Source: an uncultured Rhodobacterales bacterium (lineage in GTDB: Bacteria; Pseudomonadota; Alphaproteobacteria; Rhodobacterales; Rhodobacteraceae). From it: DNA of 55,155 nt. The translations under genes were made by a program, and so were the position numbers. The stretch spans positions 14,490 through 69,644 of the forward strand of contig CAYZQS010000003.1 of NCBI GenBank assembly GCA_964480735.1. The letters are read 5' to 3'. Shown here piece after piece: positions 2,812 through 55,155 of this stretch. Every line of letters starts with the position of its first letter. Positions within the stretch are counted from its first letter, which is position 1. Under the pieces are notes generated by a model, which worked only from the letters and a program-made list of their open reading frames with translations, was not told the origin of the DNA and searched no databases.

Positions 2812-3261
2812 TTGGCCGTGGAATACACCTGTGAAATCGAAATTGACCTGCCACAAGCCAGAGTTATCGAATTGTTTGACGACGCGGATAATCTGAAAGA
2901 ATGGCAGGAAGGATTGGTCAGTTTTACCCACCGCAGCGGCGAGGCAGGCCAGCCCGGCGCCGTGTCCGATCTGGTGTTTCAGATGGGAAAGCGAAAGATT
3001 GAAATGGTCGAGACGATCGAGCGGCGAAATCTGCCAGAAGAATTTACAGCCATTTTTACGGCAAAGGGCGTCTGGAACCGCAACGCGAATTTCTTTGAAG
3101 CCAGAGGCGACAAAACCATTTGGCTGCAAAAGAACGAGTTTCGATGCACCGGTATCATGATGCGGCTGATGACAGTGCTGATGCCCGGAATGTTCAAAAA
3201 GCAGTCATTGAAATATATGGTCGCCTTTAAAGCATTTGCTGAAGGCGCGCCGCCAAATTAA
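2812..3261 (+). CDS. SRPBCC/START-like ligand-binding protein
   Basis: 149-aa ORF 25 nt after the dehalogenase stop, with a TTG start as listed. Size and overall sequence pattern resemble the SRPBCC superfamily. The call is by resemblance only. Confidence 0.55.
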   Translation: MAVEYTCEIEIDLPQARVIELFDDADNLKEWQEGLVSFTHRSGEAGQPGAVSDLVFQMGKRKIEMVETIERRNLPEEFTAIFTAKGVWNRNANFFEARGDKTIWLQKNEFRCTGIMMRLMTVLMPGMFKKQSLKYMVAFKAFAEGAPPN

Positions 3262-3536
3262 GTCCAGTTCACGGCCTGACCACCCGGCAGCAGTTGGCGG
3301 ACCTGTGACGGCAGGTCGTAGTCCAATGAATACGCATCACAAAATCCGCTGACGATTTCATCGGAACTTAGAATGAAGTCAAGGACCGAGCCAAGAAAAT
3401 CCGGATCGCCGGCATTTTCCATCAGGGTATTTATGTCAGCACCGCTGTTGGCCAGAAAAACCCGCATAAAGTCCTGCTGGTCCGCCAACCAGCCAAGTGC
3501 CTGAAGGGCAATGGTTTCTGCCTGATCCTGTTTCAT
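3258..3536 (-). CDS. DUF3572-family protein
   Basis: 92-aa ORF divergent from pleD. The sequence (ALQALGWLA...FL..SG...DPDFLGSVLDF) and its position next to pleD match this alphaproteobacterial family as I remember it. Confidence 0.6.
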   Translation of the reverse strand: MKQDQAETIALQALGWLADQQDFMRVFLANSGADINTLMENAGDPDFLGSVLDFILSSDEIVSGFCDAYSLDYDLPSQVRQLLPGGQAVNWT

Positions 3537-7748: not shown

Positions 7749-8426
7749 ATGGACAAAACTCAAATCCGAAACGCCGCGACGATTATTTTACTGCGCGACC
7801 GGGACAGTGAACCAAAAGTGTTGATGGGACAGCGCGGCAAAACCGCTGCGTTTATGCCAAACAAGTTTGTGTTTCCGGGCGGCGCCCTGGATGAACAGGA
7901 CAGCCAGGTCTCGTTGGCGCGGCCGATAAATGCTGATTGCCTGCGGCGGTTAAGGGCCAAGGCGGATGCGGGCGTGGCCGAGGCGCTGGTGTTGGCGGCC
8001 ATTCGCGAACTGTGGGAAGAAACCGGATTGTTGCTGGGTCAAAAGGGTGATGCCGGGCAAAACGGCGGCGTGCCTGAAGCATGGCAGTCGTTTTATCAGT
8101 CCGGCGTGCAGCCAAGCGGTGCGGGCATACGATTTGTTTTTCGCGCCATCACCCCGCCGGGTCGCCCCCGGCGGTTTGACGCGCGGTTTTTTCTGGCCGA
8201 TGCTGATTGCATAAGCGGCTCGCTTGACGATTTTACCCATGCAAGCGATGAGTTAAGCCACTTGCAATGGATCGCGCTTTCAGAGGCCCGTAATTTTGAT
8301 CTGCCGTTCATAACAGAGGTGGTGCTGGCCGAGATTGCTGCGGGGCTAAAATCCGGAGAGTCAGATCAATCGGTGCCGTTTTTTTTCAACGAAGCGGATA
8401 CATCCTATTTCGACCGCTTGATTTAA
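7749..8426 (+). CDS. NUDIX-family hydrolase
   Basis: 225 aa with a Nudix-box core AIRELWEETGL preceded by FPGGALDE. Confidence 0.7.
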   Translation: MDKTQIRNAATIILLRDRDSEPKVLMGQRGKTAAFMPNKFVFPGGALDEQDSQVSLARPINADCLRRLRAKADAGVAEALVLAAIRELWEETGLLLGQKGDAGQNGGVPEAWQSFYQSGVQPSGAGIRFVFRAITPPGRPRRFDARFFLADADCISGSLDDFTHASDELSHLQWIALSEARNFDLPFITEVVLAEIAAGLKSGESDQSVPFFFNEADTSYFDRLI

Positions 8427-8454
8427 GTCCAGAATTCGTCAATTTAGGTCCAGA
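8422..8454. promoter_or_regulatory. Two direct repeats TTTAAGTCCAGA / TTTAGGTCCAGA spaced 21 bp start to start; candidate TauR (MocR) operator
   Basis: Repeats lie at 8422-8433 and 8443-8454, 15 nt upstream of the tauR start. On the other strand they read CTGGACTTAA and CTGGACCTAA. This fits my unverified recollection of the Rhodobacter capsulatus TauR site CTGGACYTAA. Confidence 0.5.
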
Positions 8455-8468
8455 TCGGATGGGCCTAG

Positions 8469-9926
8469 ATGACAATTGCCGCAGATACGTTTTTTTTGGA
8501 TCCGGCGTTTCAGGGATCCTTGCAAAGCCAGATACAACAGATCGTGGCTGCGGCTATTTTATCGGGCCGGTTTTTGCCCGCGGAAAAGCTGCCGTCGTCG
8601 CGAAAACTGGCGTCCCATCTGGGCGTTTCCCGCATTACCGTGACGCTGGCCTATAACGAGCTTGTGGCAGATGATTATCTGAGAGCGAAAGATAAATCCG
8701 GATATTTCGTTTCAGAAACCGCACCGACGTCGCCCCTTAGCAGCGCAGATTTTGTAACGCCGACTGACACCGTTGATTGGGACCGGGTGATGCACCGCCG
8801 GTTTACCGGCTCGCGACAGGTGGCAAAGCGCCCCGACTGGCGGCAGTTTCCCTATCCGTTTATTTATGGTCAGGCTGATCCTGACCTGTTTCACCAATCA
8901 AACTGGCGGCTTTGCGCGCTGGAGGCGCTTGGGAAAAAACAATTTGACAGCCTGACCGTTGACTACGCCGAAAGAGACGATCCAGAGCTGATAGATTTTA
9001 TTGCCAGGCACACGCTGCCGCGTCGTGGTATTCTGGCGCGGCCAGAGCAGATACTGGTGACGGTCGGTGCACAAAACGCGCTGTGGATGGTAGCGCAGAT
9101 ATTGCTGGGCGCGGGGCGGTTGGCGGTTTGTGAAAACCCCGGGTATCCGGGATTGCGGGATATTTTGAACCACGCCGGATGCCGCAAATACATGGTTGAC
9201 GTTGATGACGACGGATTGCCCCCGGACATGCTGCCAAAGCAAATGGACGTGGTGTTCACCACGCCAAGCCACCAGTGCCCCACCACGGCCACCATGCCGA
9301 TGGAGCGCCGCCGCGAATTGCTGCGGCTGGCGGAAGAAAGGGATTTTCTGATCGTCGAGGATGACTACGAATTTGAGATGAGCTTTTTAAAAACACCGTC
9401 ACCGGCGCTAAAATCACTGGACCGGGACGGGCGGGTGATCTACGTCGGCAGTTTTTCGAAATCGCTGTTTCCGGGGCTGCGGCTGGGTTATCTGGTGGCT
9501 TCTGAGGCTTTCGTACGGCAGGCGCGGGCGTTGCGCGCCGCGGTTTTACGACACCCACCAGGCCATATGCAGCGGACCACGGCGTTTTTTCTGGCCCGCG
9601 GGCATTACGACGCGATGATCAAAACCATGCGCGATGCGTTTCACGAACGTCGAAAAGTCATGGATAACGCGCTGCGTCAGTCCGGCCTTTATATTGCCGG
9701 AAAGGCGGTTTTTGGCGGCTCCAGCATCTGGATCAGGGGGCCGGACGGAATGCGGGCTGATGATCTGGCGCAGGCGTTGCAGCATAGGGGCGTGTTGATT
9801 GAGCCGGGCACACCTTTTTTTGCGGGGCATGATGCGCCTGAAAATTATTTTCGGCTTGCGTATTCGTCGATCGCGGCAAAACGCATTCCGGAAGGCGTGT
9901 CGCGGATTGCCTCTGCGTTGGCGTGA
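8469..9926 (+). CDS. tauR: MocR-subfamily GntR regulator (wHTH + PLP aminotransferase-like domain), TauR-like
   Basis: N-terminal wHTH (LPSSRKLASHLGVSRITVTLAYNELVADDYL), an aminotransferase fold with SFSKSL (PLP lysine), and a position immediately upstream of xsc-pta. Confidence 0.7.
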   Translation: MTIAADTFFLDPAFQGSLQSQIQQIVAAAILSGRFLPAEKLPSSRKLASHLGVSRITVTLAYNELVADDYLRAKDKSGYFVSETAPTSPLSSADFVTPTDTVDWDRVMHRRFTGSRQVAKRPDWRQFPYPFIYGQADPDLFHQSNWRLCALEALGKKQFDSLTVDYAERDDPELIDFIARHTLPRRGILARPEQILVTVGAQNALWMVAQILLGAGRLAVCENPGYPGLRDILNHAGCRKYMVDVDDDGLPPDMLPKQMDVVFTTPSHQCPTTATMPMERRRELLRLAEERDFLIVEDDYEFEMSFLKTPSPALKSLDRDGRVIYVGSFSKSLFPGLRLGYLVASEAFVRQARALRAAVLRHPPGHMQRTTAFFLARGHYDAMIKTMRDAFHERRKVMDNALRQSGLYIAGKAVFGGSSIWIRGPDGMRADDLAQALQHRGVLIEPGTPFFAGHDAPENYFRLAYSSIAAKRIPEGVSRIASALA

Positions 9927-9984
9927 ATGGAAAGTTTGGGCGCAGCACCAGAGCAGGTTTTTCCTGGCATCTGACACAGTTTTG

Positions 9985-10192
9985 CGACTGAGTTCCGGAA
10001 TTCTAGAATTCTGGAAGTCCGGACTTCCGGACTTCTGGAATACTGGAATACCGGAATACTGAAATACTGGACTTCCGGAATTCCGGAATTCTGGAAGACC
10101 GGAGGTTCAAAAGACCGGTAGACCAGATTTCTGGAAGACCGGAATTCCAGAAAACTGGTGTGCCGGGACCTTGGAATTTGAAAATACTGCAA
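9985..10192. repeat. Tandem array of ~25 degenerate 8-bp palindromic units, consensus TTCCGGAA
   Basis: From 9993 the sequence parses without indels as TTCCGGAA TTCTAGAA TTCTGGAA GTCCGGAC TTCCGGAC TTCTGGAA TACTGGAA TACCGGAA TACTGAAA TACTGGAC TTCCGGAA TTCCGGAA TTCTGGAA GACCGGAG GTTCAAAA GACCGGTA GACCAGAT TTCTGGAA GACCGGAA TTCCAGAA AACTGGTG TGCCGGGA CCTTGGAA TTTGAAAA. Confidence 0.95.
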
Positions 10193-10624
10193 CTTTCAAA
10201 TCACCAAATCAGCGTGACACCGAACGTCCAAATGACCGGCGTGCCAAAGCGTGCCGAACAGTATTCATCGCGGAGGTTTTCCAAATGCGGCCACTCATTG
10301 ATTTTGGGTTTGTTTAGCGGATCAACCAAAGTGATCTGTGTTTATTCCAACGCACTGCGGTTTCGTAAAACGTGTCGGTGTATGGGCAAGCTGTTTGTTC
10401 AAGTCCCGGCGGCTTTTTCAGGAAAAAACTTCCCTGATCGAATGCTATTGTTCCAGACCCAAAGCCAAATGGGAGTTCTGGATATAAAAGCCCCACATAT
10501 CTGGCCCTATCGCATCTTGATCCGCTGTCGCATAACATCGCCGCAAGGTCCGATCAGAGGCCTTGTTTTTGCTGCCTGTGCGCCTTCGCATCACCAGTTT
10601 TTGCCAATTAAGGATACCCACCCC

Positions 10625-12403
10625 ATGAAAATGACCACCGAGGAAGCCTTTGTTAAAGTTCTGCAAATGCACGGTATCGACAACGCTTTTGGCATAATTG
10701 GGTCGGCCTTCATGCCGATCTCGGACTATTTTCCAAAGGCGGGCATCACATTTTGGGATTGTGCCCATGAATATTCCGGCGGCATGATGGCCGATGGCTT
10801 TGCCCGCGCAACCGGCAAGATGTGCGTCGCCATTGCCCAAAACGGCCCCGGCATCGCCAATTTTGTCACGCCGATCAAAACCGCTTATTGGAACCACACG
10901 CCGATGCTGCTGGTCACGCCGCAGGGTGCAAACAAAACGATGGGGCAGGGTGGCTTTCAGGAAGTGCCGCAAATGAACATGTTCGCGGATTGCGTGGCCT
11001 ATCAGGAAGAAGTGCGCGATCCTTCCCGCATGGCCGAAGTGCTGAACCGGGTGATCTTGCAGGCAAAGCGGCTGTGCGCTCCGGCCCAGATCAACGTTCC
11101 GCGCGATTACTGGACGCAGGTGATCGACATTGACCTGCCGGCGATTGTGGAGTTTGAGCGCCCTTCCGGTGGCACCGACGCCATAGCGGCTGCCGCTGAT
11201 TTGCTGTCAAATGCCAAGTTTCCCGTCGTCCTGAACGGTGCGGGCGTGGTCATTGGCGGTGCGATTGCCGCCACGCAAGCCCTTGCCGAACGTCTGGATG
11301 CGCCGGTGTGCTGCGGCTACCAGCACAATGATGCTTTCCCCGGCAGCCATCCGCTGTTTGCCGGGCCGCTGGGTTATAACGGCTCTAAGGCCGGGATGGA
11401 GCTGATCTCAAGGGCCGACGTGGTGCTGGCGCTTGGCACCCGTTTGAACCCGTTTTCCACCCTGCCGGGATACGGCATCGATTACTGGCCAACAAAGGCC
11501 AAAGTCATTCAGGTGGATATTAATCCTGACCGGATCGGCCTGACCAAACCGGTCAGCGTCGGTATCGTTGGCGACGCCAAAGCGGTGGCCACGCAGATAC
11601 TTGATCAATTGGCGGACACCGCCGGTGACGCGGGTCGTTCAGACCGCAAAGCCCTGATCGCCAAAACAAAATCGGCATGGGCGCAGACCCTGACGTCGAT
11701 GGATCACGAAGAAGACGACGACGGAACAACCTGGAACCAGCGCGCACGGGACGCCAAGCCCGATCACATGTCCCCGCGCAAGGCGTGGCGTGCCATTCAG
11801 GCGGCTTTGCCGAAAGAAGCCATCATCAGTTCTGACATCGGCAACGCCTGCGCCATCGGCAACGCCTATCCCAGTTTTGAAGAAGGGCGCAAATATCTGG
11901 CCCCCGGCCTGTTTGGCCCCTGCGGGTACAGTTTTCCGGCCATTTTAGGTGCCAAAATTGGCCGTCCCGACACACCGGTTGTGGGCTTCGCCGGAGACGG
12001 TGCCTTTGGGATTTCCATGAACGAGATGACCGCCTGCGGGCGGGATGACTGGCCCGCGATCACCATGCTGATCTTTCGCAATTACCAGTGGGGGGCTGAA
12101 AAACGCAACACAACGCTTTGGTACAACGACAACTTTGTCGGAACAGAGCTGGATTACAACGTGTCATACGCGGGCATTGCCGAGGCCTGTGGCGTCAAAG
12201 GTGTTGTCGCTACATCAATGGACGGCCTGACCGATGCCCTGAACGCGGCGGTCAAGGCGCAGATGCAGGAAAATCAGACCACGTTCATCGAGGTGATGCT
12301 CAATCAGGAACTGGGCGAACCCTTTCGGCGTGACGCCATGAAAACGCCGGTGGAGGTGGCCGGTATAAACTCTAAAGATATGCAAAGCCAAAGCGCGGTT
12401 TGA
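10625..12403 (+). CDS. xsc: Sulfoacetaldehyde acetyltransferase (ThDP-dependent)
   Basis: ATG 10625 after AAGGA. The N-terminus MKMTTEEAFVKVLQMHGIDNAFGIIGSAFMPISDYFPKAGITFWDCAHE is characteristic of Xsc. It is 592 aa and is followed by pta. The in-frame upstream extension to 10160 is rejected. Confidence 0.9.
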   Translation: MKMTTEEAFVKVLQMHGIDNAFGIIGSAFMPISDYFPKAGITFWDCAHEYSGGMMADGFARATGKMCVAIAQNGPGIANFVTPIKTAYWNHTPMLLVTPQGANKTMGQGGFQEVPQMNMFADCVAYQEEVRDPSRMAEVLNRVILQAKRLCAPAQINVPRDYWTQVIDIDLPAIVEFERPSGGTDAIAAAADLLSNAKFPVVLNGAGVVIGGAIAATQALAERLDAPVCCGYQHNDAFPGSHPLFAGPLGYNGSKAGMELISRADVVLALGTRLNPFSTLPGYGIDYWPTKAKVIQVDINPDRIGLTKPVSVGIVGDAKAVATQILDQLADTAGDAGRSDRKALIAKTKSAWAQTLTSMDHEEDDDGTTWNQRARDAKPDHMSPRKAWRAIQAALPKEAIISSDIGNACAIGNAYPSFEEGRKYLAPGLFGPCGYSFPAILGAKIGRPDTPVVGFAGDGAFGISMNEMTACGRDDWPAITMLIFRNYQWGAEKRNTTLWYNDNFVGTELDYNVSYAGIAEACGVKGVVATSMDGLTDALNAAVKAQMQENQTTFIEVMLNQELGEPFRRDAMKTPVEVAGINSKDMQSQSAV

Positions 12404-28550: not shown

Positions 28551-28704
28551 CTAACCGACTGACCGACCGGTCGACAAGTGCGCCGCTGCCATCCAACGTT
28601 GGTCAGAGAATGGCCAAAAAACACCTTTTGTTCGCGGCAATTTGTCAAAGACCAAGGATAAAGCGCGTTGCGCAGCCGCTTCCGTCAGTTTAAAAGAAAA
28701 CGCC

Positions 28705-29223
28705 TTACGCGTCTTCGCGCGGATAGGCCACCAACCCCAATCTGCGAGCATTCTCCAGCGACAGCGTGTCAGATTCCAGACCTCTCGCCGCCTGAAATCG
28801 CCGGATCGCCCTTTTTGTGCGCGGGTCCATCTGGCCGGTGATGCGACCAAAATAGACGCCGCGTACTTTCAGGGCACGTTGCAGGGAGGCCACAAACTGT
28901 GTGTCCATCGCCACGCGACAGGGTGTTTTAAACCAGCTGTCCACCCGTGCGGTTACGATTTTTTGCAGGGTTTCTGTGCGGTAGACCGCGGGCGTGATCA
29001 GCCCGCCGGTATCGTCATAGGTGGCAGCGCGCACCAGAACTTGTTCGGTGACCGTTTCAATCACGGCAGGCGAGGTGGTTTTGCCATAACACGCACCGGG
29101 TTCGGGATTTGGCGGGCCAGCGTTGCGGGCCACCAGCAAAGTGTCCTGCCGGTCGGACCCGGCTTGACAGGCAACCAGCAGCATCAGACCGCCGGTCAGG
29201 CCAATAAGAGTGCGTTTGCGCAT
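28705..29223 (-). CDS. Lipoprotein with a C-terminal peptidoglycan-binding (PG_binding_1-like) domain
   Basis: Lipobox LLVAC. The C-terminus LQRALKVRGVYFGRITGQMDPRTKRAIRRFQAARGL is typical of the PG-binding repeat. Confidence 0.7.
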   Translation of the reverse strand: MRKRTLIGLTGGLMLLVACQAGSDRQDTLLVARNAGPPNPEPGACYGKTTSPAVIETVTEQVLVRAATYDDTGGLITPAVYRTETLQKIVTARVDSWFKTPCRVAMDTQFVASLQRALKVRGVYFGRITGQMDPRTKRAIRRFQAARGLESDTLSLENARRLGLVAYPREDA

Positions 29224-29398
29224 GGTAATCCTGTACTGCTGCCGCCCGATTTTCCGGGTCTTGGTGCCAACCTAACGTGAAACGGGGGTTAACTAAAGAA
29301 AAATGCGCACCGCGCGTCGTTTGCCCGCTAAGGCAGTTTTCTTTTTACCTGAATAAGCTGGTGGCGCTGAAAACCCTGTTCGCCCATGCGCCTTACGT

Positions 29399-29441
29399 GC
29401 GTTTTGCAAAACCGCCCTGCGTCAGATTAAACACAAAACGC
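29399..29441 (+). repeat. 43-bp intergenic repeat, copy 1
   Basis: GCGTTTTGCAAAACCGCCCTGCGTCAGATTAAACACAAAACGC. The last 29 nt match copy 2 with 2 mismatches. The ends GCGTTTTG / CAAAACGC are self-complementary. Confidence 0.85.
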
Positions 29442-30294: not shown

Positions 30295-30295
<1 letters not shown>

Positions 30296-31041
30296 TGAAG
30301 ACGCTCCTGCGCAGGGCAATGGCAACTGGCCTGATGCTGGTTTGTCCTCTGTTTGCCAGCGCGCAAGACAACGAAAAATACATCCAAAGCGCGACTTATA
30401 TTGCGCCAACCACGCGCTATGACCACGGTATTTTAGGCGATGCGATTGAATATGGCGCGATGCGAATGCTTTATGCCAGTTGTGAGGATTGCGCCAATCC
30501 GGTGCGGGGCAGCGTCAGGATAACGCTACCGCAAAACCGGGTGTTTGAGGATCTGAAACCACGATTGATTGATCTGGACAATGACAGGCAAAACGAAGTT
30601 GTGGTCATTGAAACAGATCTTGATCTGGGCGCGCGGTTGGCGGTCTATGATCTGAAAGGCCTCATAGACGCCACACCGTTTATCGGTCGCACCCACCGTT
30701 GGCTGGCCCCGATCGGTGCGGCTGATCTGGACGGCGACGGCTTTGTGGAGCTTGCTTATATTCTGAAACCGCATCTGGCCAAAGAGCTGCTGGTCTGGCG
30801 CTGGCGCGACAGAAAACTGGCGTTTGTCGCCAAAATCGGCGGGCTGACCAATCACCGGATCGGTCAGGATTTTATTTCCGGTGGAATTCGAGATTGCGGC
30901 CAGGGGCCGGAACTGGTGAGTGCTAACAGCAACTGGTCTTTGGTTATGGTCACAACTTTTGACGGCGGCAGTCTGGTGTCCCGCCCGGTTGGACCTTTTC
31001 GCGGCACAGACAGCATCAACGCGGCCCTTACCTGCCCATAG
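30295..31041 (+). CDS. Secreted FG-GAP/VCBS-repeat protein
   Basis: Signal peptide, then DLDNDRQNEVVVIE and AADLDGDGFVELAY Ca-binding-like FG-GAP motifs. The start overlaps the ferredoxin stop. Confidence 0.6.
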
Positions 31042-31047
31042 CCAATT

Positions 31048-31090
31048 GGGTTTTTCCTGCGCGCCCTGCCGCAGATTAAACACAAAACGC
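31048..31090 (+). repeat. 43-bp intergenic repeat, copy 2
   Basis: GGGTTTTTCCTGCGCGCCCTGCCGCAGATTAAACACAAAACGC, in the same orientation as copy 1. Confidence 0.85.
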
Positions 31091-31114: not shown

Positions 31115-31389
31115 TAAGAGCCCTTCACCCTTATTCATAATCACCCGGTTTCTTCCGGATACGGCAGCCCGTCATTCTATTGGCCGCAGCGCGATATGAA
31201 TATCATGCAAGGCCAACGGGGCGACGGATGCCGTATCCGGGTGAAATCCCCTCGGGACCCACGCCAATTTGCCCCAATTTCCGCGCCGTTGTTCTTGCAG
31301 GTACTCCATTACCGGCTGCGAACAACAGCTTGATCTAGGGCCAAATTGGCGCAGGCCGGGTGCCTATGAATAAGGGTGAAGGGCTCTAA
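31115..31389. mobile_element. MITE-like element: 22-23-bp perfect terminal inverted repeats, TAA flanking duplication, highly structured non-coding interior
   Basis: (A)GAGCCCTTCACCCTTATTCATA at 31117-31139 is the exact reverse complement of 31365-31387. TAA lies on both flanks (31115-31117, 31387-31389). The interior has no ORF but contains nested hairpins, for example CCGGATACGGCA 31155-31166 with TGCCGTATCCGG 31229-31240. Confidence 0.6.
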
Positions 31390-47437: not shown

Positions 47438-49750
47438 TTGAAAAAAACTTTTTACCATCCCATATTTGGTGTCGCGTGCCTGCTTGTCCTGATGATCACG
47501 TTCCCGGGGCAATCCGTTGGCCAGTCCATGCCGCAGACAGATTTGATCAGGCAGGGCGAGCCTACCGTCGTGATTTATGACCGTGAAGGCAGGCCCGGGA
47601 AATGGGCGTTTCTTCCGGCACCAAAGATTAAGGCCATGCAGGATTTCCTGGCCGAAATTGCGCCATATCTGATTGGGCGTGACGATATTTCCTTTCGCAG
47701 CGCTTCAACCGGTGCAACCGGCGACAAAACCGCCGATTGCGCAACTCACAGCACCGATGTCCCCTTTGGAACAGCAATCACACCACTTGTTTTGGCCGAC
47801 CTGTCAAAAGACGTCAGCGCCGATGGGCACCGCTCTGCTCCGGCACCGGCCCTTGCCGCCGCTGTGGACGATCTGGCCGCGCGGGGCGGTGGGCGTATCG
47901 TTTTCGTCACCGATGGCGTTGACAATTGCGGGGGTGATCCGCTGCTGGTGGCGGAAAACGCCCCGCCGTCGGTTATAATTGACGTGGTTGCGCTTGGTCA
48001 GGCCAATCAACTGCACACACTGGCGGCAATCCCGCTGGCCGCCCGCGGGAATTTTTACCTGTCAACGCCTCCGGACCGCAGCGCCGCACTGGAGGGGCAG
48101 CCACCGGAGGCCGCTCCGCCGGGTGAAAATTCCGGTGCCGATGATCGTCCGGGCGAATTTCCCGATGGTGATCTTGTTCTTGATCCCGGCGAGGCAACAG
48201 GCGCGGATGCCGCCAACCTGTCGTCGCCGTTGTTTCCCGGTGGCGGTGCCGGAGCCACGCGCATTTCTGTTAACACCGGCGTTGATGCCTGCCCGGCCTT
48301 TGATGACCTGTCCCGGCAATTGCTGGATTATTCGCGCGGAATAGACAGTGCCAAAGACAGCGGCACACCAGTACCCAAAGCCGATCCCGTGGCGGTGTCG
48401 ATCATTCTGGATGCCAGCGGATCGATGGCAGCCCGGCGTGGTGGCAAACGTAAGATGGATGTGGCGCTTAAGGCGCTGAGCGCCGCCATTCCGTCGCTTG
48501 ACGGCAAAAACGCCGTGGTCAATCTGCGGGCCTACGGCTTTGATGCCTCGGTTGCCAAAACGCCGGAAGCGTCCTGTCCCAATACAAAGCAACTGGTTGA
48601 ATTTGGCCGCGATCAGGGGCAGGCCATTTCTGATACCGCCAATGGCCTTACGCCATATGGCTACACACCCATCGCCGCCAGCCTTTTGGCAGCGGGGCGT
48701 GATCTGGAACAGGTAACAGCGCGGCGGCGATTTGCAGTGTTGATTTCTGACGGCGAAGAAACCTGCGGTGGCGATCCGGTGAAAATTGCCGCCGCGCTGA
48801 ATACAGAGGGCACAGATGTGAACACATTTGTGGTGGGCTATGATCTGGACGCTGAGCAAAAAGCGCAGATGCGGGCAGTGGCAGAGGCGGGCGGCACCGA
48901 ATACCTGAATGCCGCCAACGGTGCCGAACTGGCCAAAGCCCTGCGCGAAATCGTGACCTTTGCCGCTGAAAAGGCGGAACGGATCGCACCCACTTGCAGC
49001 AACCCGGTTGCCGGTGGTGAAACGCCCGAGACCGCGACACCGATTTTGCCGGGGATTTATACAGTGGGCGAGTTGCTGGAAAAAGGCACGTTCCGTTATT
49101 ACCGCGTGGCCTCGGCAGAAGGGCAGGTGGCGTTTGTGCGCGGGCTGATCCAGTCAAGACGCTTTATACCCGGTGACGACGGCATGGAAGAGGCGATCTA
49201 TGCGCTGGGGTCGCTTACCGTTGTGATCCTCAATCCTGACGGCAGCAAAATCGCCGGACGCTTGGCGCGGGAGTCAGATATTCCAGGCACCAGCGTTGTG
49301 GCAACCTATGCGGATACCTCCGGTGACGGTTTCATAATCGGCATCGGTGACAATTACGACCGGGTGGCGCCCAGCGGTCTGTTTCAGATCACGCTCGAAG
49401 ACGCCAGCGATGCGGGAAACGGTGATGCGGGTGCAAAAAAAGATACCGCGGATTTTCGTGAAATTATGCTTGGGCAACCGTCAACCGGTCATTTGGGGTT
49501 TGACGATTCCGCCGATGTGTGGCGGCTGGACGCGGAAGGTGAAACGACGATCGCGGTGAGCTTTGACGTTTCAGACTTGCGCTACCGCATCGTGGTATTT
49601 GACGAGGCAAGCGGCAAACGTCTGGCCCGCACCCGTGATCAATTGGTCACGTTTGAAGCGAACGGCCCTGTCCGTATTCAGGTTGAAAGTCGCGAACCGC
49701 GTCTAAAACCACGGTTTTCAGGTTACGAAATCGCGGTGATCACGCCATGA
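47438..49750 (+). CDS. Secreted multi-domain protein: degenerate vWA + intact vWA (MIDAS) + two PPC-like beta-sandwich regions
   Basis: TTG start 6 nt after AGGAG, with signal peptide MKKTFYHPIFGVACLLVLMITFPGQSVG. The first module ends RIVFVTDGVDNCGGDP with no DxSxS motif. The second has ILDASGSM ... LISDGEETCGGDP. The C-terminus has FRYYRV and DSADVWRLDAEGETTIAVSFD ... RIVVFDEASGKRLA, which is PPC-like. Confidence 0.75.
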   Translation: MKKTFYHPIFGVACLLVLMITFPGQSVGQSMPQTDLIRQGEPTVVIYDREGRPGKWAFLPAPKIKAMQDFLAEIAPYLIGRDDISFRSASTGATGDKTADCATHSTDVPFGTAITPLVLADLSKDVSADGHRSAPAPALAAAVDDLAARGGGRIVFVTDGVDNCGGDPLLVAENAPPSVIIDVVALGQANQLHTLAAIPLAARGNFYLSTPPDRSAALEGQPPEAAPPGENSGADDRPGEFPDGDLVLDPGEATGADAANLSSPLFPGGGAGATRISVNTGVDACPAFDDLSRQLLDYSRGIDSAKDSGTPVPKADPVAVSIILDASGSMAARRGGKRKMDVALKALSAAIPSLDGKNAVVNLRAYGFDASVAKTPEASCPNTKQLVEFGRDQGQAISDTANGLTPYGYTPIAASLLAAGRDLEQVTARRRFAVLISDGEETCGGDPVKIAAALNTEGTDVNTFVVGYDLDAEQKAQMRAVAEAGGTEYLNAANGAELAKALREIVTFAAEKAERIAPTCSNPVAGGETPETATPILPGIYTVGELLEKGTFRYYRVASAEGQVAFVRGLIQSRRFIPGDDGMEEAIYALGSLTVVILNPDGSKIAGRLARESDIPGTSVVATYADTSGDGFIIGIGDNYDRVAPSGLFQITLEDASDAGNGDAGAKKDTADFREIMLGQPSTGHLGFDDSADVWRLDAEGETTIAVSFDVSDLRYRIVVFDEASGKRLARTRDQLVTFEANGPVRIQVESREPRLKPRFSGYEIAVITP

Positions 49751-50979
49751 TAAAAACCTTGCCGATTGCACTGGTGTTGTCTGTGGCTGCCGCGCCGGTG
49801 GCCGCACAGGATCTGCCGGATTTTGAAGCTTTGGCCGAAAAGTATTTGCAAGAGGCAATAGTGGCCGCACAACAACAGGCCAAACTGGGCGAACGCGAAA
49901 CCGCGCCCAAATTCGTGAAACTTATTCAGGATGATGAAAGGTGGATGAACCCGCGCGTCAAACCCGGTATCGGCGCGATGATCGGGCATTTTGCCATGTA
50001 CGATGCACAAGGATTTACCCTGGGCGCGGCGCAGATAGCAAACGATGCCGCCCGGGTAACAGCGCAGATAAAATACACTGCGTTTGAGGGAATTGACTGG
50101 CCCGCGCAGGTGGATTTTATCCGGGTCAACGATGTGTGGACACTGCGCGATGTTCGCCTGACCAAACGCACGCCGCTGCCGGACAACTCGCCGCCTGACG
50201 AGGTGCTTATCCGGTTTATCGACGATTACCAACGCAGCGTTGACGCGATCAGGGCATTGCCGGACCGGTCGTGGAAGGCCGTGCAGCTAACGCGCCACTG
50301 GGCGTTTGGCGGTGGCTACTGGCAGCGCAACAGCGATTGCCAAGAGGCCGTGCGCCGACAGTGTTTTGACGACCTTGCCACCAATCTTGGTCTGCACGTG
50401 AAAATGCTGTCCTTGCGTGAGAAAACCTTTGAGGTGATTGATTTCAAACTGGGCGCAGATACCGCAGAGGGAAATTTACGGGTCACCACCAAAACCAGAA
50501 GTGCCACGAAAACGGACAATTGGACAGTAAATCTGCGAAAACACCGGCGCTTCGGCTGGCAGATTGTTTCAATCGCCAAAATCGTTGACGCACAGCCGGA
50601 TGCGCCGCCCGCCACGCTGGCAATAGACAACAGCACACCTGAGGCTTTGGTTTTGTCCATTCTCAACGGTTTGCTGGGTCCGGGCGCGCCAAAGCCATCG
50701 GCGTTTTTAGAGGTCAGCACCCTGCTTGCACCGCATTTCGCTGATACGCGGTCGGGCCGGAAATCTTTGGGCAGACTGGCGGGACTTGGCACAATAGTGC
50801 AGATCTTTGGCGGTGGTCCGGCGGAAAACTGGGAGGTGACTGGCACAGCCAGCCAACAGGTTACCGCCACGGTGTGGGCGAAAAATCAGGGGTCATCAGA
50901 ATTGCAGCCGGTTCAGATCGTGTTTGACCTGGGCGGCGCAGACGGCAATCAAATTGAAAACATCGAGGTTGGAAAATGA
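49747..50979 (+). CDS. Secreted protein of unknown function (apparently three tandem ~120-aa modules)
   Basis: ATGA overlap with the upstream gene and signal peptide MIKTLPIALVLSVAAAPVAAQ. A recurring module end ...V.A.I.......W....F.....W.L... appears three times (WPAQVDFIRVNDVWTLRDV; DNWTVNLRKHRRFGWQIVSI; VWAKNQG...VQIVFDLGGADGNQIENIEV). No family recognised. Confidence 0.65.
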   Translation: MIKTLPIALVLSVAAAPVAAQDLPDFEALAEKYLQEAIVAAQQQAKLGERETAPKFVKLIQDDERWMNPRVKPGIGAMIGHFAMYDAQGFTLGAAQIANDAARVTAQIKYTAFEGIDWPAQVDFIRVNDVWTLRDVRLTKRTPLPDNSPPDEVLIRFIDDYQRSVDAIRALPDRSWKAVQLTRHWAFGGGYWQRNSDCQEAVRRQCFDDLATNLGLHVKMLSLREKTFEVIDFKLGADTAEGNLRVTTKTRSATKTDNWTVNLRKHRRFGWQIVSIAKIVDAQPDAPPATLAIDNSTPEALVLSILNGLLGPGAPKPSAFLEVSTLLAPHFADTRSGRKSLGRLAGLGTIVQIFGGGPAENWEVTGTASQQVTATVWAKNQGSSELQPVQIVFDLGGADGNQIENIEVGK

Positions 50980-51638
50980 AAATTTGCAAAAACTTGATAC
51001 GCATGATCGCATCAACCACTGTTTTGGCTACGCTCAGCGCCGGACCGCTGGCAGCGGAACCCTTTGGGGTGGGCTTTACCGGCCCGGCGTTTTTGACCCC
51101 CGGTGCCAATACCTTTGATAATTTCTCCGGCATGGTTGAATTTGCCGACAACCTTGCCGGTTCGTTGTCTGATTTCCTGCCGGAGGATGCGTCTGAAACG
51201 CCAGCCAACGAAAACGCGGCGCTGGGGTCGCAATGTCTGACAGACCCCGCCTGTTCCGCCTGCGCCGGGGATGCCGACGCACGGGCAAACCGGGCGTTTG
51301 AGGTATTGATCAACAACGAACGCCTTTTGGCCCGCACCCTGCGCAAGGCCAAAATGCTGGAAAATGTTGCCGAAGGTGCGGCGTCGCAACATGCGGCGGC
51401 AAAAGCCGCCTATACCATTCAACTGGCCAGCGAGATCGAACCGGCCAAGCGGGAATTTTTCAAGAATCTGGGCAAGGCCCAGAATGCCGCTCTGGATGTG
51501 TTGCATGTGAAGCTAAAACAAATTGGCACATGCGAGCAGGAACACTTGGGCAGCGCCACGTTTTTGGCCCTGGCGGAACATTCCTATCAGATCGCCAAAC
51601 TCAGATTTGCCCTCAGTTTGAAGGGAGAGGGGCAGTGA
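50976..51638 (+). CDS. Secreted helical protein of unknown function with a Cys cluster
   Basis: ATGA overlap, a signal peptide ending LAAEP, and the cluster CLTDPACSAC plus one distal Cys. The remainder has a helical, Ala/Lys-rich composition. Confidence 0.6.
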   Translation: MKICKNLIRMIASTTVLATLSAGPLAAEPFGVGFTGPAFLTPGANTFDNFSGMVEFADNLAGSLSDFLPEDASETPANENAALGSQCLTDPACSACAGDADARANRAFEVLINNERLLARTLRKAKMLENVAEGAASQHAAAKAAYTIQLASEIEPAKREFFKNLGKAQNAALDVLHVKLKQIGTCEQEHLGSATFLALAEHSYQIAKLRFALSLKGEGQ

Positions 51639-52180
51639 ATGTTCGATCCGCAGTATTCTGTCTATGCACCGCCGTTTCACCGGCCATGGCTGACGACGGC
51701 GCGTATGCCGCCGCTTATGACATCAACGTTGAATTTCCGATTGCTGCGCACGGCGATGGCGCTCGCGAGGTGTTTTGGCTGATCAACCTTGGCGGCGACG
51801 ATCTGGTTGATGCCTATAAATTGCTTCCCGCACCTGCGGCTGGCGAAGTTCTGGTGGTTGGGGGTGGTACTGAAACCAACACCCGCCCTGACGTGACGCT
51901 GGAACTGGTGAAACGCTTTGGTGGCGAGGTTGTGGCAAGCGCCAACCTGTCCGGTGATCCCACATTTGCAAACTGGGTGGTGACAGCGCCGGTTTACTTG
52001 CGCGTCACGGCGGCAGACGATGTGGACAAACAGGAAATTCTGATCGGCATCCAGATTTTTCCGGCAGGCGCGACTACAGCGGGCCGGTCGGAAGCAACCA
52101 GCACAACCGACTTCAAACTGCCGATTCCGGAAAATGCCACCGACCCGGTTCCGAAACTGGTTGTTCCCGCCGACAGGTAG
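51635..52180 (+). CDS. Secreted PPC-like beta-sandwich protein of unknown function
   Basis: GTG 51635 in a GTGA overlap with the upstream stop, preceded by GGGAGAGG. Signal peptide VNVRSAVFCLCTAVSPAMA. GDDLVDAYKLLPAPAAGEVLVVGG...DVTLELV...GEVVASAN resembles pre-peptidase C-terminal domains. Confidence 0.6.
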   Translation: MNVRSAVFCLCTAVSPAMADDGAYAAAYDINVEFPIAAHGDGAREVFWLINLGGDDLVDAYKLLPAPAAGEVLVVGGGTETNTRPDVTLELVKRFGGEVVASANLSGDPTFANWVVTAPVYLRVTAADDVDKQEILIGIQIFPAGATTAGRSEATSTTDFKLPIPENATDPVPKLVVPADR

Positions 52181-52237
52181 GCGGCAGGGTCCTGTACCTA
52201 TTGACTTTTGTTGGAGGCAGGGCGCGGGGGTAAAACC

Positions 52238-52292
52238 CATGCGGTTTCATGTGGGCCGGACTTTTCAGGCACCAAGTGTTTGTTCAGAAAAA
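52238..52292 (+). repeat. Flanking module copy A (about 55 bp) of the octamer-array locus
   Basis: CATGCGGTTTCATGTGGGCCGGACTTTTCAGGCACC...TTCAGAAAA. 27 of the first 36 positions are identical to copy B. Confidence 0.7.
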
Positions 52293-52447
52293 GCCAGTCC
52301 AACGAGGTTGCAACAGACGTAATATCAGCCGATTTCCGCAATCTGAACCCCGCTATCCAAAGCCCGGATGCAAAGCTGACCATTGCCAAGTCGGCGCACG
52401 GTTTCTGCTGTAATACGCTGAAATAAAACCGGAACCCAGGTCTAATT

Positions 52448-52559
52448 TTCCGGTGCACCGGTGCACTGATCAACCGGCCTACTGGCCCACTGATCAACCG
52501 GTGCATTGGTCCACCGGTGCACCGGCCAATCGGACCACCAGACCACCAGCGCAATGCCG
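52448..52559. repeat. Tandem array of 14 degenerate 8-bp palindromic units, consensus CACCGGTG
   Basis: It parses without indels as TTCCGGTG CACCGGTG CACTGATC AACCGGCC TACTGGCC CACTGATC AACCGGTG CATTGGTC CACCGGTG CACCGGCC AATCGGAC CACCAGAC CACCAGCG CAATGCCG. Confidence 0.95.
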
Positions 52560-52593
52560 GTTTGAACCAAAACCCCGGGGCAAAAGCCAATCG

Positions 52594-52647
52594 CCTGTGG
52601 TTTGATGGTGCCCGGCCGTTTCAGGCACCGCTGATCAATTCAGAAAA
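52594..52647 (+). repeat. Flanking module copy B
   Basis: CCTGTGGTTTGATGGTGCCCGGCCGTTTCAGGCACCGCTGATCAATTCAGAAAA. A related copy lies downstream of array 1 at 10392-10443 (TGTTTGTTCAAGTCCCGGCGGCTTTTTCAGG...CTGATCGAAT). Confidence 0.7.
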
Positions 52648-52681
52648 TGGGCATGATGTGACAGACCCGCTGTCCCAAAAA

Positions 52682-52707
52682 AGCCCCCGGAGAATGCACC
52701 GGGGGCT
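52682..52707 (-). terminator. Rho-independent terminator of the family-5 SBP gene (potentially bidirectional)
   Basis: AGCCCCCGG / CCGGGGGCT is a 9-bp stem with an 8-nt loop. A T6 run follows on the minus strand and TTTTCATTTT follows on the plus strand. It lies 55 nt past the stop at 52763. Confidence 0.8.
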
Positions 52708-52762
52708 TTTCATTTTGTTATTGATTGTGACCGCCCGAAAAGGCTGCGATCACCCGCTCAAA

Positions 52763-54817: not shown

Positions 54818-55100
54818 TGATATTTCTCCCACTGTTGAAACAATTTGTTGAATATCGCGTTTCGTTTTAATCGAGCCATAACTCCCAGAAAACGTCGAAC
54901 GCAATTTTCAACCCAAATCTATTTGACGCAGAATTCAAAAATGAAAGCTGAACGATCTGCGGCAGCCAGTATCAAAAGTCGTATCATCAAATTTTTGACC
55001 AAACAAGCAAAAGTCTGAATTTGCGATATTTGTCCAACGAAAACGGTTAAGTCGAGTTAAGTGCCAACCGGTTCAGACGGAATTTTTGATTTGCAATGTT

Positions 55101-55155
55101 TGGCGGAGAGACAGGGATTCGAACCCTGGGTGGAGTCACCCCCACAACGGTTTTC
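55101..55155 (-). tRNA. tRNA-Ser (NGA anticodon), 3' part only; continues beyond the window end
   Basis: The minus strand reads ...GAAA ACCGT TGTGGGGGTGACTCCACC CAGGG TTCGAAT CCCTG TCTCTCC G CCA. This gives a long variable arm (type II tRNA), G35 A36 visible, discriminator G and an encoded CCA. Confidence 0.8.

Follow-up and report, generated by a model that had tools for sequence, protein, structure and literature searches.

The 55,155-nt stretch of contig CAYZQS010000003.1 (assembly GCA_964480735.1) that was analysed here, and which is referred to throughout as the window, contains an array of octamers within a 582-bp intergenic region that separates two convergent genes. The gene on the 5′ side of this region is on the + strand and closes a four-gene vWA operon (47438-52180), the products of which are 770, 410, 220 and 181 aa in length, and on the − strand a family-5 solute-binding-protein (SBP) gene (SBP_bac_5) faces the region. 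No Pfam domain was detected in the last three of the vWA-operon proteins (410, 220 and 181 aa), and a comparison with 5.8e9 proteins yielded just two homologues of the 181-aa protein. A conserved non-coding element of approximately 430 nt (52212-52640, + strand), one of at least seven paralogous copies in the same genome, surrounds the array, and the behaviour of the array units leads us to propose, tentatively, that the array may serve as a landing pad for a DNA-binding protein. A coding role for the region was rejected, as the open reading frames (ORFs) that cross it are without Pfam match, a 130-aa antisense ORF is without homologue among the same 5.8e9 proteins, and single-nucleotide gaps in the alignment of the paralogues disrupt all reading frames. 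Comparison of the window with Rfam at gathering thresholds returned no match, and the intergenic region searched at E<=5 gave terminator-like noise only.

The array, hereafter array 2 as the window contains a further array (array 1) that is discussed below, is polar from its upstream head and comprises 13 units of a CAYYRR box plus two variable nt (52448-52551, + strand; consensus CACCGGTG), being delimited by its register, lag-8 statistics, substitution pattern and polarity. The strict 8-nt register reported in the initial annotation was confirmed: units 1-7 read TTCCGGTG CACCGGTG CACTGATC AACCGGCC TACTGGCC CACTGATC AACCGGTG, units 8-13 continue as CATTGGTC CACCGGTG CACCGGCC AATCGGAC CACCAGAC CACCAGCG, and a decaying tail of two units, CAATGCCG and GTTTGAAC, follows still in register. 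The exact octamer CACCGGTG occurs twice in the array, as had been noted before, and the combination CACTGATC-AACCGG is likewise present in two copies, which generates a higher-order period of 24 nt; both arrays, including this 24-nt period, were recovered by Tandem Repeats Finder and by a repeat finder. Lag-8 identity, calculated over 96 nt, peaked at 0.656 in array 2 and 0.80 in array 1 as compared to a mean of 0.25 (sd 0.051) for the window, with values of at most 0.47 at all other lags, and these two arrays were the only lag-8 outliers in 55 kb. All ten departures from CCGG in array 2 are transitions, in agreement with the earlier remark that variants of this core are mainly of this type.

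Two window proteins, Xsc and TauR, have their nearest relatives (88% and 73% identity, respectively) in Rhodobacterales and other alphaproteobacterial metagenome-assembled genomes (MAGs), and the host is probably an uncultured, Rhodobacterales-like alphaproteobacterium. The species is not represented among 185,579 reference genomes, and an initial scan of reference-genome contigs identified no orthologous locus; the genome is present in three subsurface metagenomes (X1-X3). The vWA operon also occurs at L003, a 47%-identical locus where its downstream neighbour is a different one and where no array was found. Contigs from the three metagenomes were aligned to the region at 80% likeness, and in each run four further contigs matched 52418-52470, corresponding to the 30 nt preceding the array and its first two to three units, with 85-90% identity. 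These contigs were at genome depth in all three runs (in X1, 42, 38.6, 45.8 and 45.5 as compared to 46.6 for the genome), their upstream flanks were all different, and their arrays differed while keeping the register. With a pattern derived from two of the contig flanks, two contigs of 13-14 kb that belong to the same genome, L204 and L206, were obtained from a JGI metagenome, and these were found to carry full paralogues at L204 578-1005 (+ strand) and L206 9689-9254 (− strand). The use of L204 as reference recovered more members, bringing the total to seven distinct X1 contigs at genome depth (2192, 4087, 4491, 765, 1175, 996 and 5038 nt), which indicates that at least seven element loci are present in one genome.

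A profile built from the three full copies and applied with nhmmer delimited the element at window 52212-52640, L204 578-1005 and L206 9689-9254 with E-values of 1e-123 to 1e-129, and a multiple alignment established that the three copies are homologous over about 430 nt, with a mean column identity of 71%. The initial annotation had regarded the arrays as members of a family of composite intergenic elements; for array 2 this idea is right because full paralogues exist, in which module A, head, array and module B are kept together as a unit of about 430 nt, and because at least seven loci occur at genome depth in the three metagenomes, but membership was not shown for array 1. The number of units is 13 in the window and approximately 17 and 14 in the other two full copies. 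In all three, the array begins with TTCCGGTG directly after ..GGTCYAATTTT; this first unit, which had been taken for a hybrid of the array-1 and array-2 consensus, is instead one constant component of the junction between head and array, with the same sequence in all three. The junction is nearly invariant among the paralogues, the remaining parts being 60-70% identical. The copies are situated after the vWA operon, after a thiamine pyrophosphate (TPP)-enzyme gene and inside a suf/Yip1 cluster, with an SBP gene, a protease and Yip1/suf genes among their neighbours. Both the window copy and the L204 copy lie 3′ of a same-strand gene and between convergent genes, and the L206 copy is antisense to its neighbouring genes.

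Variation between strains was judged from contigs, which hide rare variants, and on array units that are degenerate. The window locus showed at most two transitions and a constant length in five samples, and L206 exhibited one single-nucleotide polymorphism (SNP) and no indel, whereas L204 displayed a net change of 8 nt inside the array together with a 41-nt indel just 3′ of it. Variation in unit number was observed at L204, and was not seen at the window locus or L206.

The element consists, in order, of module A, a spacer, a head of about 50 nt, the array, a GTTTGAACC block and module B, which ends in CAGGCACCGCTG. Module A (52226-52292, + strand), recognized by its direct repetition in module B, has the pattern GGGG.AAA.CCATGCGGTTTCATG..CCGG..TTTCAGGCACC..TTCAGAAAA, and its TGCGGTTT.AT core does not vary among the three paralogues. 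The central spacer (52293-52397, + strand) contains islands of invariant alignment columns, AAAAG.CAG, GCAATC.G, ATCCAAAG and GGCGC. The head (52398-52447, + strand), which was defined by its conservation among paralogues, carries a GCYRTAAY motif followed by CTGAAA (52418-52423), a 17-nt spacer and TCTAAT (52441-52446); its last 30 nt constitute the best-conserved part of the family, and GGTCCAATTTTCCGGTGCACTGGTGCACTG within it is identical between L204 and L206. The arrangement TTGAYA/CTGAAA-17-TCYAAT is promoter-like by eye, with a -10-like hexamer that is devoid of the usual A at position 2; a consensus scan found no promoter in the head, and an antisense promoter was judged good in L204 only. 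Downstream of the array, the in-register units CAATGCCG and GTTTGAAC and the conserved GTTTGAACC block, the latter shared by L206 and the X1 variant of the L204 locus, occupy 52552-52583 (+ strand). Module B (52576-52647, + strand), as placed by alignments and profiles, forms the 3′ copy of the internal direct repeat, and its terminal CAGGCACCGCTG marks the right edge of family homology.

The direct repeats that the initial annotation had placed on either side of the array were upheld, modules A and B running in the same direction and sharing 76% identity over 41 nt (52233-52273 and 52589-52629), with a local alignment score of 34 as compared to 18.1 +/- 2.7 for dinucleotide shuffles, none of 500 of which reached it. 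A profile of the 5′ part of the paralogues also matched module B at 52584-52647 (E 8e-4), the 3′ profile matched 52547-52640 (E 1e-17), and the A/B repeat is present in the paralogues too. A supposed likeness of module B to 10392-10443, near array 1, proved not to be significant, as 36 to 355 of 500 shuffles attained the score and no profile match was obtained near array 1. The ends of the element (GGAGGCAGGGCGC... and ...CAGGCACCGCTG) show no inverted repetition in the three copies compared, no target-site duplication was seen at the edges of these copies, and no transposase was found near the window, L204 or L206 copies; a miniature inverted-repeat or other non-autonomous transposon was rejected for want of terminal inverted repeats and target-site duplication. 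An intrinsic-terminator-like, bidirectional hairpin, detected by a terminator scan at 52679-52710 with a stem of 12 bp between an A run and a T run, sits between the element and the convergent SBP gene, and as it does not occur in the flanks of the paralogues it lies outside the conserved element.

The substitution pattern of the units was determined separately for core (positions 3-6) and outer positions. In the 44 units of the three family arrays the core has undergone 41 transitions and 3 transversions and the outer positions 14 and 38, respectively (Fisher p 2e-11), and in the 22 units of array 1 the corresponding numbers are 16 and 0 for the core and 3 and 23 for the outer positions (Fisher p 6e-9), both p-values being optimistic because variant units are duplicated and units are consequently not independent observations. 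Within the family unit, conservation falls on C1 and A2, and positions 7-8 vary almost freely; the unit is therefore a directional CAYYRR box plus two variable bases; functionally, it is not the perfect palindrome as which it had first been described. On the sense strand, core changes of C>T outnumber those of G>A by 30 to 11 (p 0.004). Units diverge more from the consensus the farther they lie from the head (pooled rho 0.52, p 2e-4), head-proximal units being close to the consensus and distal units decayed, and array 1 shows the same polarity from left to right (rho 0.56, p 0.005). Despite approximately 25% substitution, the 8-bp register is maintained without indel over 13-22 units. Permutation of the unit order left hairpin stability unchanged in the three family arrays (p 0.27, 0.90 and 0.53), and as permuted orders fold equally well a particular fold is not the conserved feature. 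Co-evolved hairpin arms were rejected on the same grounds, and the folding models suggest that the capacity to form a hairpin is no more than a consequence of the unit sequence.

Among the functions that the initial annotation had listed for the array, namely structural DNA, a protein landing pad and a transcription insulator, the evidence favours the protein landing pad. By analogy with characterized systems, and at a probability that we put at roughly 0.42, the array would constitute a putative DNA-level landing pad for a small, cooperatively binding, sequence-specific protein. The indel-free register, the 6-bp box with its free 2-bp spacer and the confinement of core changes to the purine or pyrimidine class together argue for per-unit recognition at fixed spacing. 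In the mechanism envisaged, one binding unit would be accommodated per 8 bp, with the 6-bp CAYYRR box being read and the 2-bp spacer ignored. The invariant junction of head and first unit would be the starting point of binding, from which the protein would go on to cover the array, much as ribbon-helix-helix (RHH) proteins such as ParG and MetJ do on a plasmid centromere or an operator (parH and met boxes, respectively). Units could be gained or lost through slipped-strand events close to the head, where they are nearly identical, while selection for protein contact would preserve the register and the YYRR core. The coated element might organise or segregate the chromosome, regulate the promoter-like head or titrate a plasmid partition protein.

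Met boxes, with the consensus AGACGTCT, occur in short runs upstream of met genes of gammaproteobacteria. MetJ binds as one dimer per 8-bp box and its repression needs adjacent boxes (PMC3228920), and its operators resemble the array in being contiguous 8-bp palindromic units in tandem, each contacted by one RHH dimer (PMC3228920). A MetJ operator as such was rejected, as the unit is CACCGGTG (GGTGCACC in shifted register) and not AGACGTCT, the context is not one of met genes and the relatives are alphaproteobacterial. The omega protein of pSM19035 binds 7-bp heptads that double as centromere, and these are contiguous short units like those of the array but with a 7-bp period (PMC9499535); neither MetJ operators nor omega heptads, unlike array 2, are located within a dispersed element. 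The type Ib centromere parH of plasmid TP228, which functions with the ATPase ParF and with ParG, spans about 100 bp and is composed of 12 degenerate tetramer boxes with regular 4-bp spacers, each bound by one ParG dimer, and it is adjoined by the operator OF, of 8 boxes; degenerate boxes are tolerated and coating is cooperative (PMC3130281). Array 2, in which 13 degenerate boxes recur every 8 bp across 104 bp, is similar in format to the 12 (plus 8) boxes at 8-bp (4+4) spacing over about 100 bp of parH, and many short boxes at fixed spacing, as in a type Ib centromere, are present in the window copy (13 units) as in its paralogues (14-17). In contrast to parH, the array has no adjacent parF/parG-like genes, is found in at least seven dispersed chromosomal copies rather than at one plasmid locus, has the box CAYYRR and not ACTC, lacks AT-rich spacers in array 2 and is enclosed in a conserved element of 430 nt. 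The element was not assigned to the type Ib centromere/operator family because neither the partition genes nor the single-locus setting of that family were found.

A search of PLSDB with the family arrays lent this analogy support and yielded a sole match, CACCGGTG CACTGGTG CACTGGTG CACAGGTG, on the gentR plasmid NZ_CP144671 of Sphingomonas sp., where 31 of 33 nt are identical to the start of the L204 and L206 arrays. The match is situated in a 1.37-kb non-coding stretch that harbours four clusters of 8-bp-phased GTGCACnn units and is located directly upstream of parA and an RHH gene (PF20605); three of five homologous ParA-RHH loci were also found to carry 8-bp-phased palindromic hexamers (GTATACnn, GTTAACnn and ..TCGAC) just upstream of parA. 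The array sites preceding ParA-PF20605 operons are L207 2230-3120 (NZ_CP144671), L211 1712-1760, L212 1676-1738 and L208 1730-1805, and in L207 the 8-bp phase is maintained across clusters that are hundreds of bp apart. Judging by their position, phased GTNNAC arrays in front of alphaproteobacterial parA-RHH operons are probably unannotated centromeres or operators. These plasmid arrays (NZ_CP144671, Sphingobium pUT1 and Acetobacter aceti pAAJCM20276_3) share with the element tandem degenerate palindromic units of 8-bp period, but differ from it in being placed directly upstream of a partition operon and in having a conserved hexamer, GTGCAC, plus a free dinucleotide. The Sphingomonas arrays and the element family thus have an architecture in common, from which a common specificity is only putative.

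Several observations weigh against a protein landing pad. Searches of about 82 kb (window, L204 and L206) by tblastn and profile found neither a ParA nor an RHH gene, and the copies occur in ordinary chromosomal contexts with no partition locus. The Sphingomonas plasmid conserves GTGCAC with a free central dinucleotide whereas the family conserves CAYYRR, and the conservation of modules A and B and of the 240-nt 5′ part is not accounted for by a bare binding array. Between strains, the L204 copy evolves at least as fast as its surroundings: it shows two indels, and three SNPs each in the 5′ part (240 nt) and the 3′ part (50 nt), as compared to 0.7% for the neighbouring gene. The optimism of the Fisher p-values given above belongs to the same side of the balance.

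The strongest competing explanation, which we nevertheless consider rather unlikely, holds that the element acts at the RNA level: a sense transcript, arising as the 3′ untranslated region of the operon or from the promoter-like head, would fold across the array into a long G.U-rich hairpin and might stabilise or terminate transcripts, insulate the convergent genes or act as a source of small RNA. The excess of C>T over G>A on the sense strand (30 over 11, p 0.004) would preserve G.U pairing in such a transcript, and the sense strand is predicted to fold far more strongly in L204 (-74.8 as compared to -57.3 kcal/mol) and array 1 (-76.8 as compared to -53.1), yet in the window copy the antisense fold is the more stable (-72.5 as compared to -62.3), L206 is equal on both strands, and in the three family arrays permuted unit orders fold as well as the real one. 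RNAalifold predicted 89% of the cells of the sense 5′ part to be paired, with 12 pairs changed on both sides and a covariation bonus where the antisense strand incurred a penalty, although this consensus structure is weak, the covariation coming from three sequences and the structure being derived from the same three. Conservation of positions 1-2 opposite free positions 7-8, their would-be partners, means that outer pairs are often broken. The position of the window and L204 copies after a same-strand gene and between convergent genes, with a terminator following the window copy, would suit an RNA function; the antisense orientation of the L206 element relative to its neighbours would not, nor would the lack of an Rfam match, the failure of the consensus scan to find a promoter and the -10-like hexamer without its usual A at position 2. 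The locus was found in none of the RNA runs searched.

That the element is a selfish or neutral, non-autonomous dispersed repeat, in which a palindromic octamer microsatellite changes by replication slippage and is used neither by the host nor by a dedicated protein, is in our estimation a doubtful account of the whole. It is consistent with the at least seven dispersed intergenic copies with flanks of 60-70% identity, with the 8-nt and 41-nt indels between strains at L204 and a SNP density there that equals or exceeds that of the flanking DNA, with local block structure and the 24-nt higher-order repeat, with the near-absence of similar arrays from relatives (one in 1.45 Mb) and with a hairpin potential that would be merely a by-product of the unit. 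Neutral decay would, however, be expected to affect the eight positions alike and to introduce indels, whereas the register is intact and core and outer patterns differ sharply; moreover, the non-repetitive head is about 95% conserved as compared to 60-70% elsewhere, and terminal inverted repeats, target-site duplications and a nearby transposase are all missing. Mosaic repeats of bacteria include the BOX elements (boxA-boxBn-boxC) of Streptococcus pneumoniae, BIME/REP and the RIME of rhizobia. As generally described, BOX, BIME and RIME share with the element dispersed intergenic copies, modular ends, variable internal subunits, hairpin potential and a frequent position between convergent genes, but the unit of the element is 8 nt rather than about 45 nt, its end modules are direct and not inverted repeats, and its array is polar with a leader-like head. 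No described repeat family was matched, as Rfam gave no hit, the plasmid matches concern the array only, and BOX, REP and RIME were compared by description only. As a genomic object, being multi-copy and provided with flanking modules, the element is closest to interspersed mosaic repeats such as BOX, BIME and RIME. A leader-like sequence on one side and degeneracy of the farthest repeat are also features of CRISPR, which was rejected as the 8-nt units are contiguous, without cas genes and without the unique spacers that separate the 23-50-nt repeats of CRISPR.

A more elaborate proposal, which appears distinctly improbable, is that the invariant junction of head and first unit would be the recognition site of a dedicated protein, which would either extend the array there by octamers in a polar, templated manner or coat it. 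The seven or more chromosomal copies would in that case have an organising function like that of centromeres, or would titrate, by acting as decoys, the partition protein of an invading plasmid. Polar templated growth of this type is loosely comparable to telomerase and to CRISPR adaptation. The site-specific enzyme acting at CCGG that the initial annotation had entertained, a methyltransferase or endonuclease which by 5-methylcytosine deamination or nicking would yield both transitions and array, has no support and appears very improbable, for although core changes are nearly all transitions and mostly affect the inner C/G of CCGG, the 82 kb outside the arrays have observed/expected ratios of 1.07 for CCGG, 1.02 for CTGG and 0.94 for CCAG, that is no depletion of the former or enrichment of the latter two, a result that speaks against genome-wide methylation or restriction at CCGG, and avoidance of CCGG would have shown because other palindromic hexamers are strongly depleted, and the conserved head, 8-nt phase and transversion-rich outer positions are left unexplained. 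In the same 82 kb (window, L204 and L206, arrays masked) CCATGG, GCCGGC, GGCGCC and GGGCCC have observed/expected ratios of 0.27-0.4, and CCGG, GATC and GAATTC are not under-represented; the depletion of GTGCAC is not exceptional among palindromic hexamers.

Short-unit arrays in strict register with position-dependent constraint are the signature of cooperative coating by protein, which has so far been encountered mainly in plasmid centromeres and a few operators, and here the same architecture is found within a conserved, leader-bearing element with dispersed chromosomal copies. Should a protein that binds the array exist, the element would represent a new class of chromosomal landing pads that might function in organisation, segregation or defence against plasmids. 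If there is none, it would offer a clean natural instance of a polar, slippage-driven array with its core held to pyrimidine-pyrimidine-purine-purine, and would help to separate mutation from selection in bacterial repeats. The alphaproteobacterial ParA-RHH plasmid group is moreover predicted to possess 8-bp-phased GTNNAC arrays as centromeres.

Array 1 (9993-10168, + strand), identified by lag-8, repeat and substitution analyses, comprises 22 units of a CYGGAM box plus two variable nt with the consensus TTCCGGAA. Its flanks gave no profile match to the element family and displayed no detectable homology, and its unit type occurs in many other contigs, as the X1 depth over 10040-10073 is 836 as compared to 49; from these sequence data it looks like a separate array type that is present at several places. 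RNA folding of 9975-10120 gave -76.8 kcal/mol (z -11) for the + strand and -53.1 for the − strand, and it is solely on the + strand that the real unit order folds better than 98% of permutations. Matches of array 1 in IncF plasmids were perfect (CCGGAATA)n repeats and were set aside as unrelated. These microsatellites (L202 3001-3078 and L203 ~3001-3042, on IncF plasmids of E. albertii and E. coli) precede a ProQ/FinO-family gene by about 550 bp and are annotated within a hypothetical protein; in E. albertii they number 9.8 copies.

Canonical TauR boxes (CTGGACYTAA) occur at 8423-8432 and 8444-8453 (− strand), 3258-3267, 10478-10487, 10501-10510 and 55047-55056, and matches with at most one mismatch number 8 as compared to 2.3 expected. 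The MocR/GntR gene at 8469-9926 was assigned as tauR because an exact direct pair of TauR boxes is located just upstream of it; a pair with 2 mismatches precedes xsc (10625-12403) and a box with 1 mismatch precedes the SBP_bac_5 gene. Array 1 lies between tauR and xsc and its CYGGAM box resembles the TauR half-site CTGGAC; a role as TauR operator was rejected, as the canonical TauR boxes are found elsewhere. When 1.45 Mb of sequence surrounding xsc, taken from 80 alphaproteobacterial genomes, was scanned at lag 8, one array was identified, at L142 8170-8242, which consists of GKCYRGAC units and adjoins tauR in an uncultured Rhodobacter MAG. The proximity of array 1 and the L142 array to TauR sites may be a coincidence or may reflect a link between such arrays and TauR.

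When viral contigs were searched for seven units of the CYRG-N4 pattern, almost all matches were perfect microsatellites and were discarded. A degenerate exception in IMG/VR contigs is an array of 10 units, GTCTAGAC GTCTAGAT GGCCAGAT ..., at L059 10647-10726 and L063 10722-10801, which is situated in a region resembling a plasmid or phage origin, with CGGTTTCGCACT iterons and several TTATCCACA DnaA boxes. Elsewhere in the window, a 32-nt intergenic inverted repeat (31117-31148 and 31356-31387) has arms that are 94% complementary and 207 nt apart, and is without Rfam match. A 44-nt direct repeat (..GCCCTGCnnCAGATTAAACACAAAACGC) of 80% identity is located at 29398-29441, approximately 120 nt beyond the ORF 28642-29280, and at 31047-31090, where it begins 6 nt past the ORF 30295-31041, the latter copy resembling, weakly and in inverted orientation, the beginning of the element (52201-52239). 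Finally, the − strand of 55100-55155 carries an apparent 3′ half of a tRNA gene (GGTTCGAATCCCTG motif), for which ARAGORN made no tRNA call because the end of the window cuts the gene.

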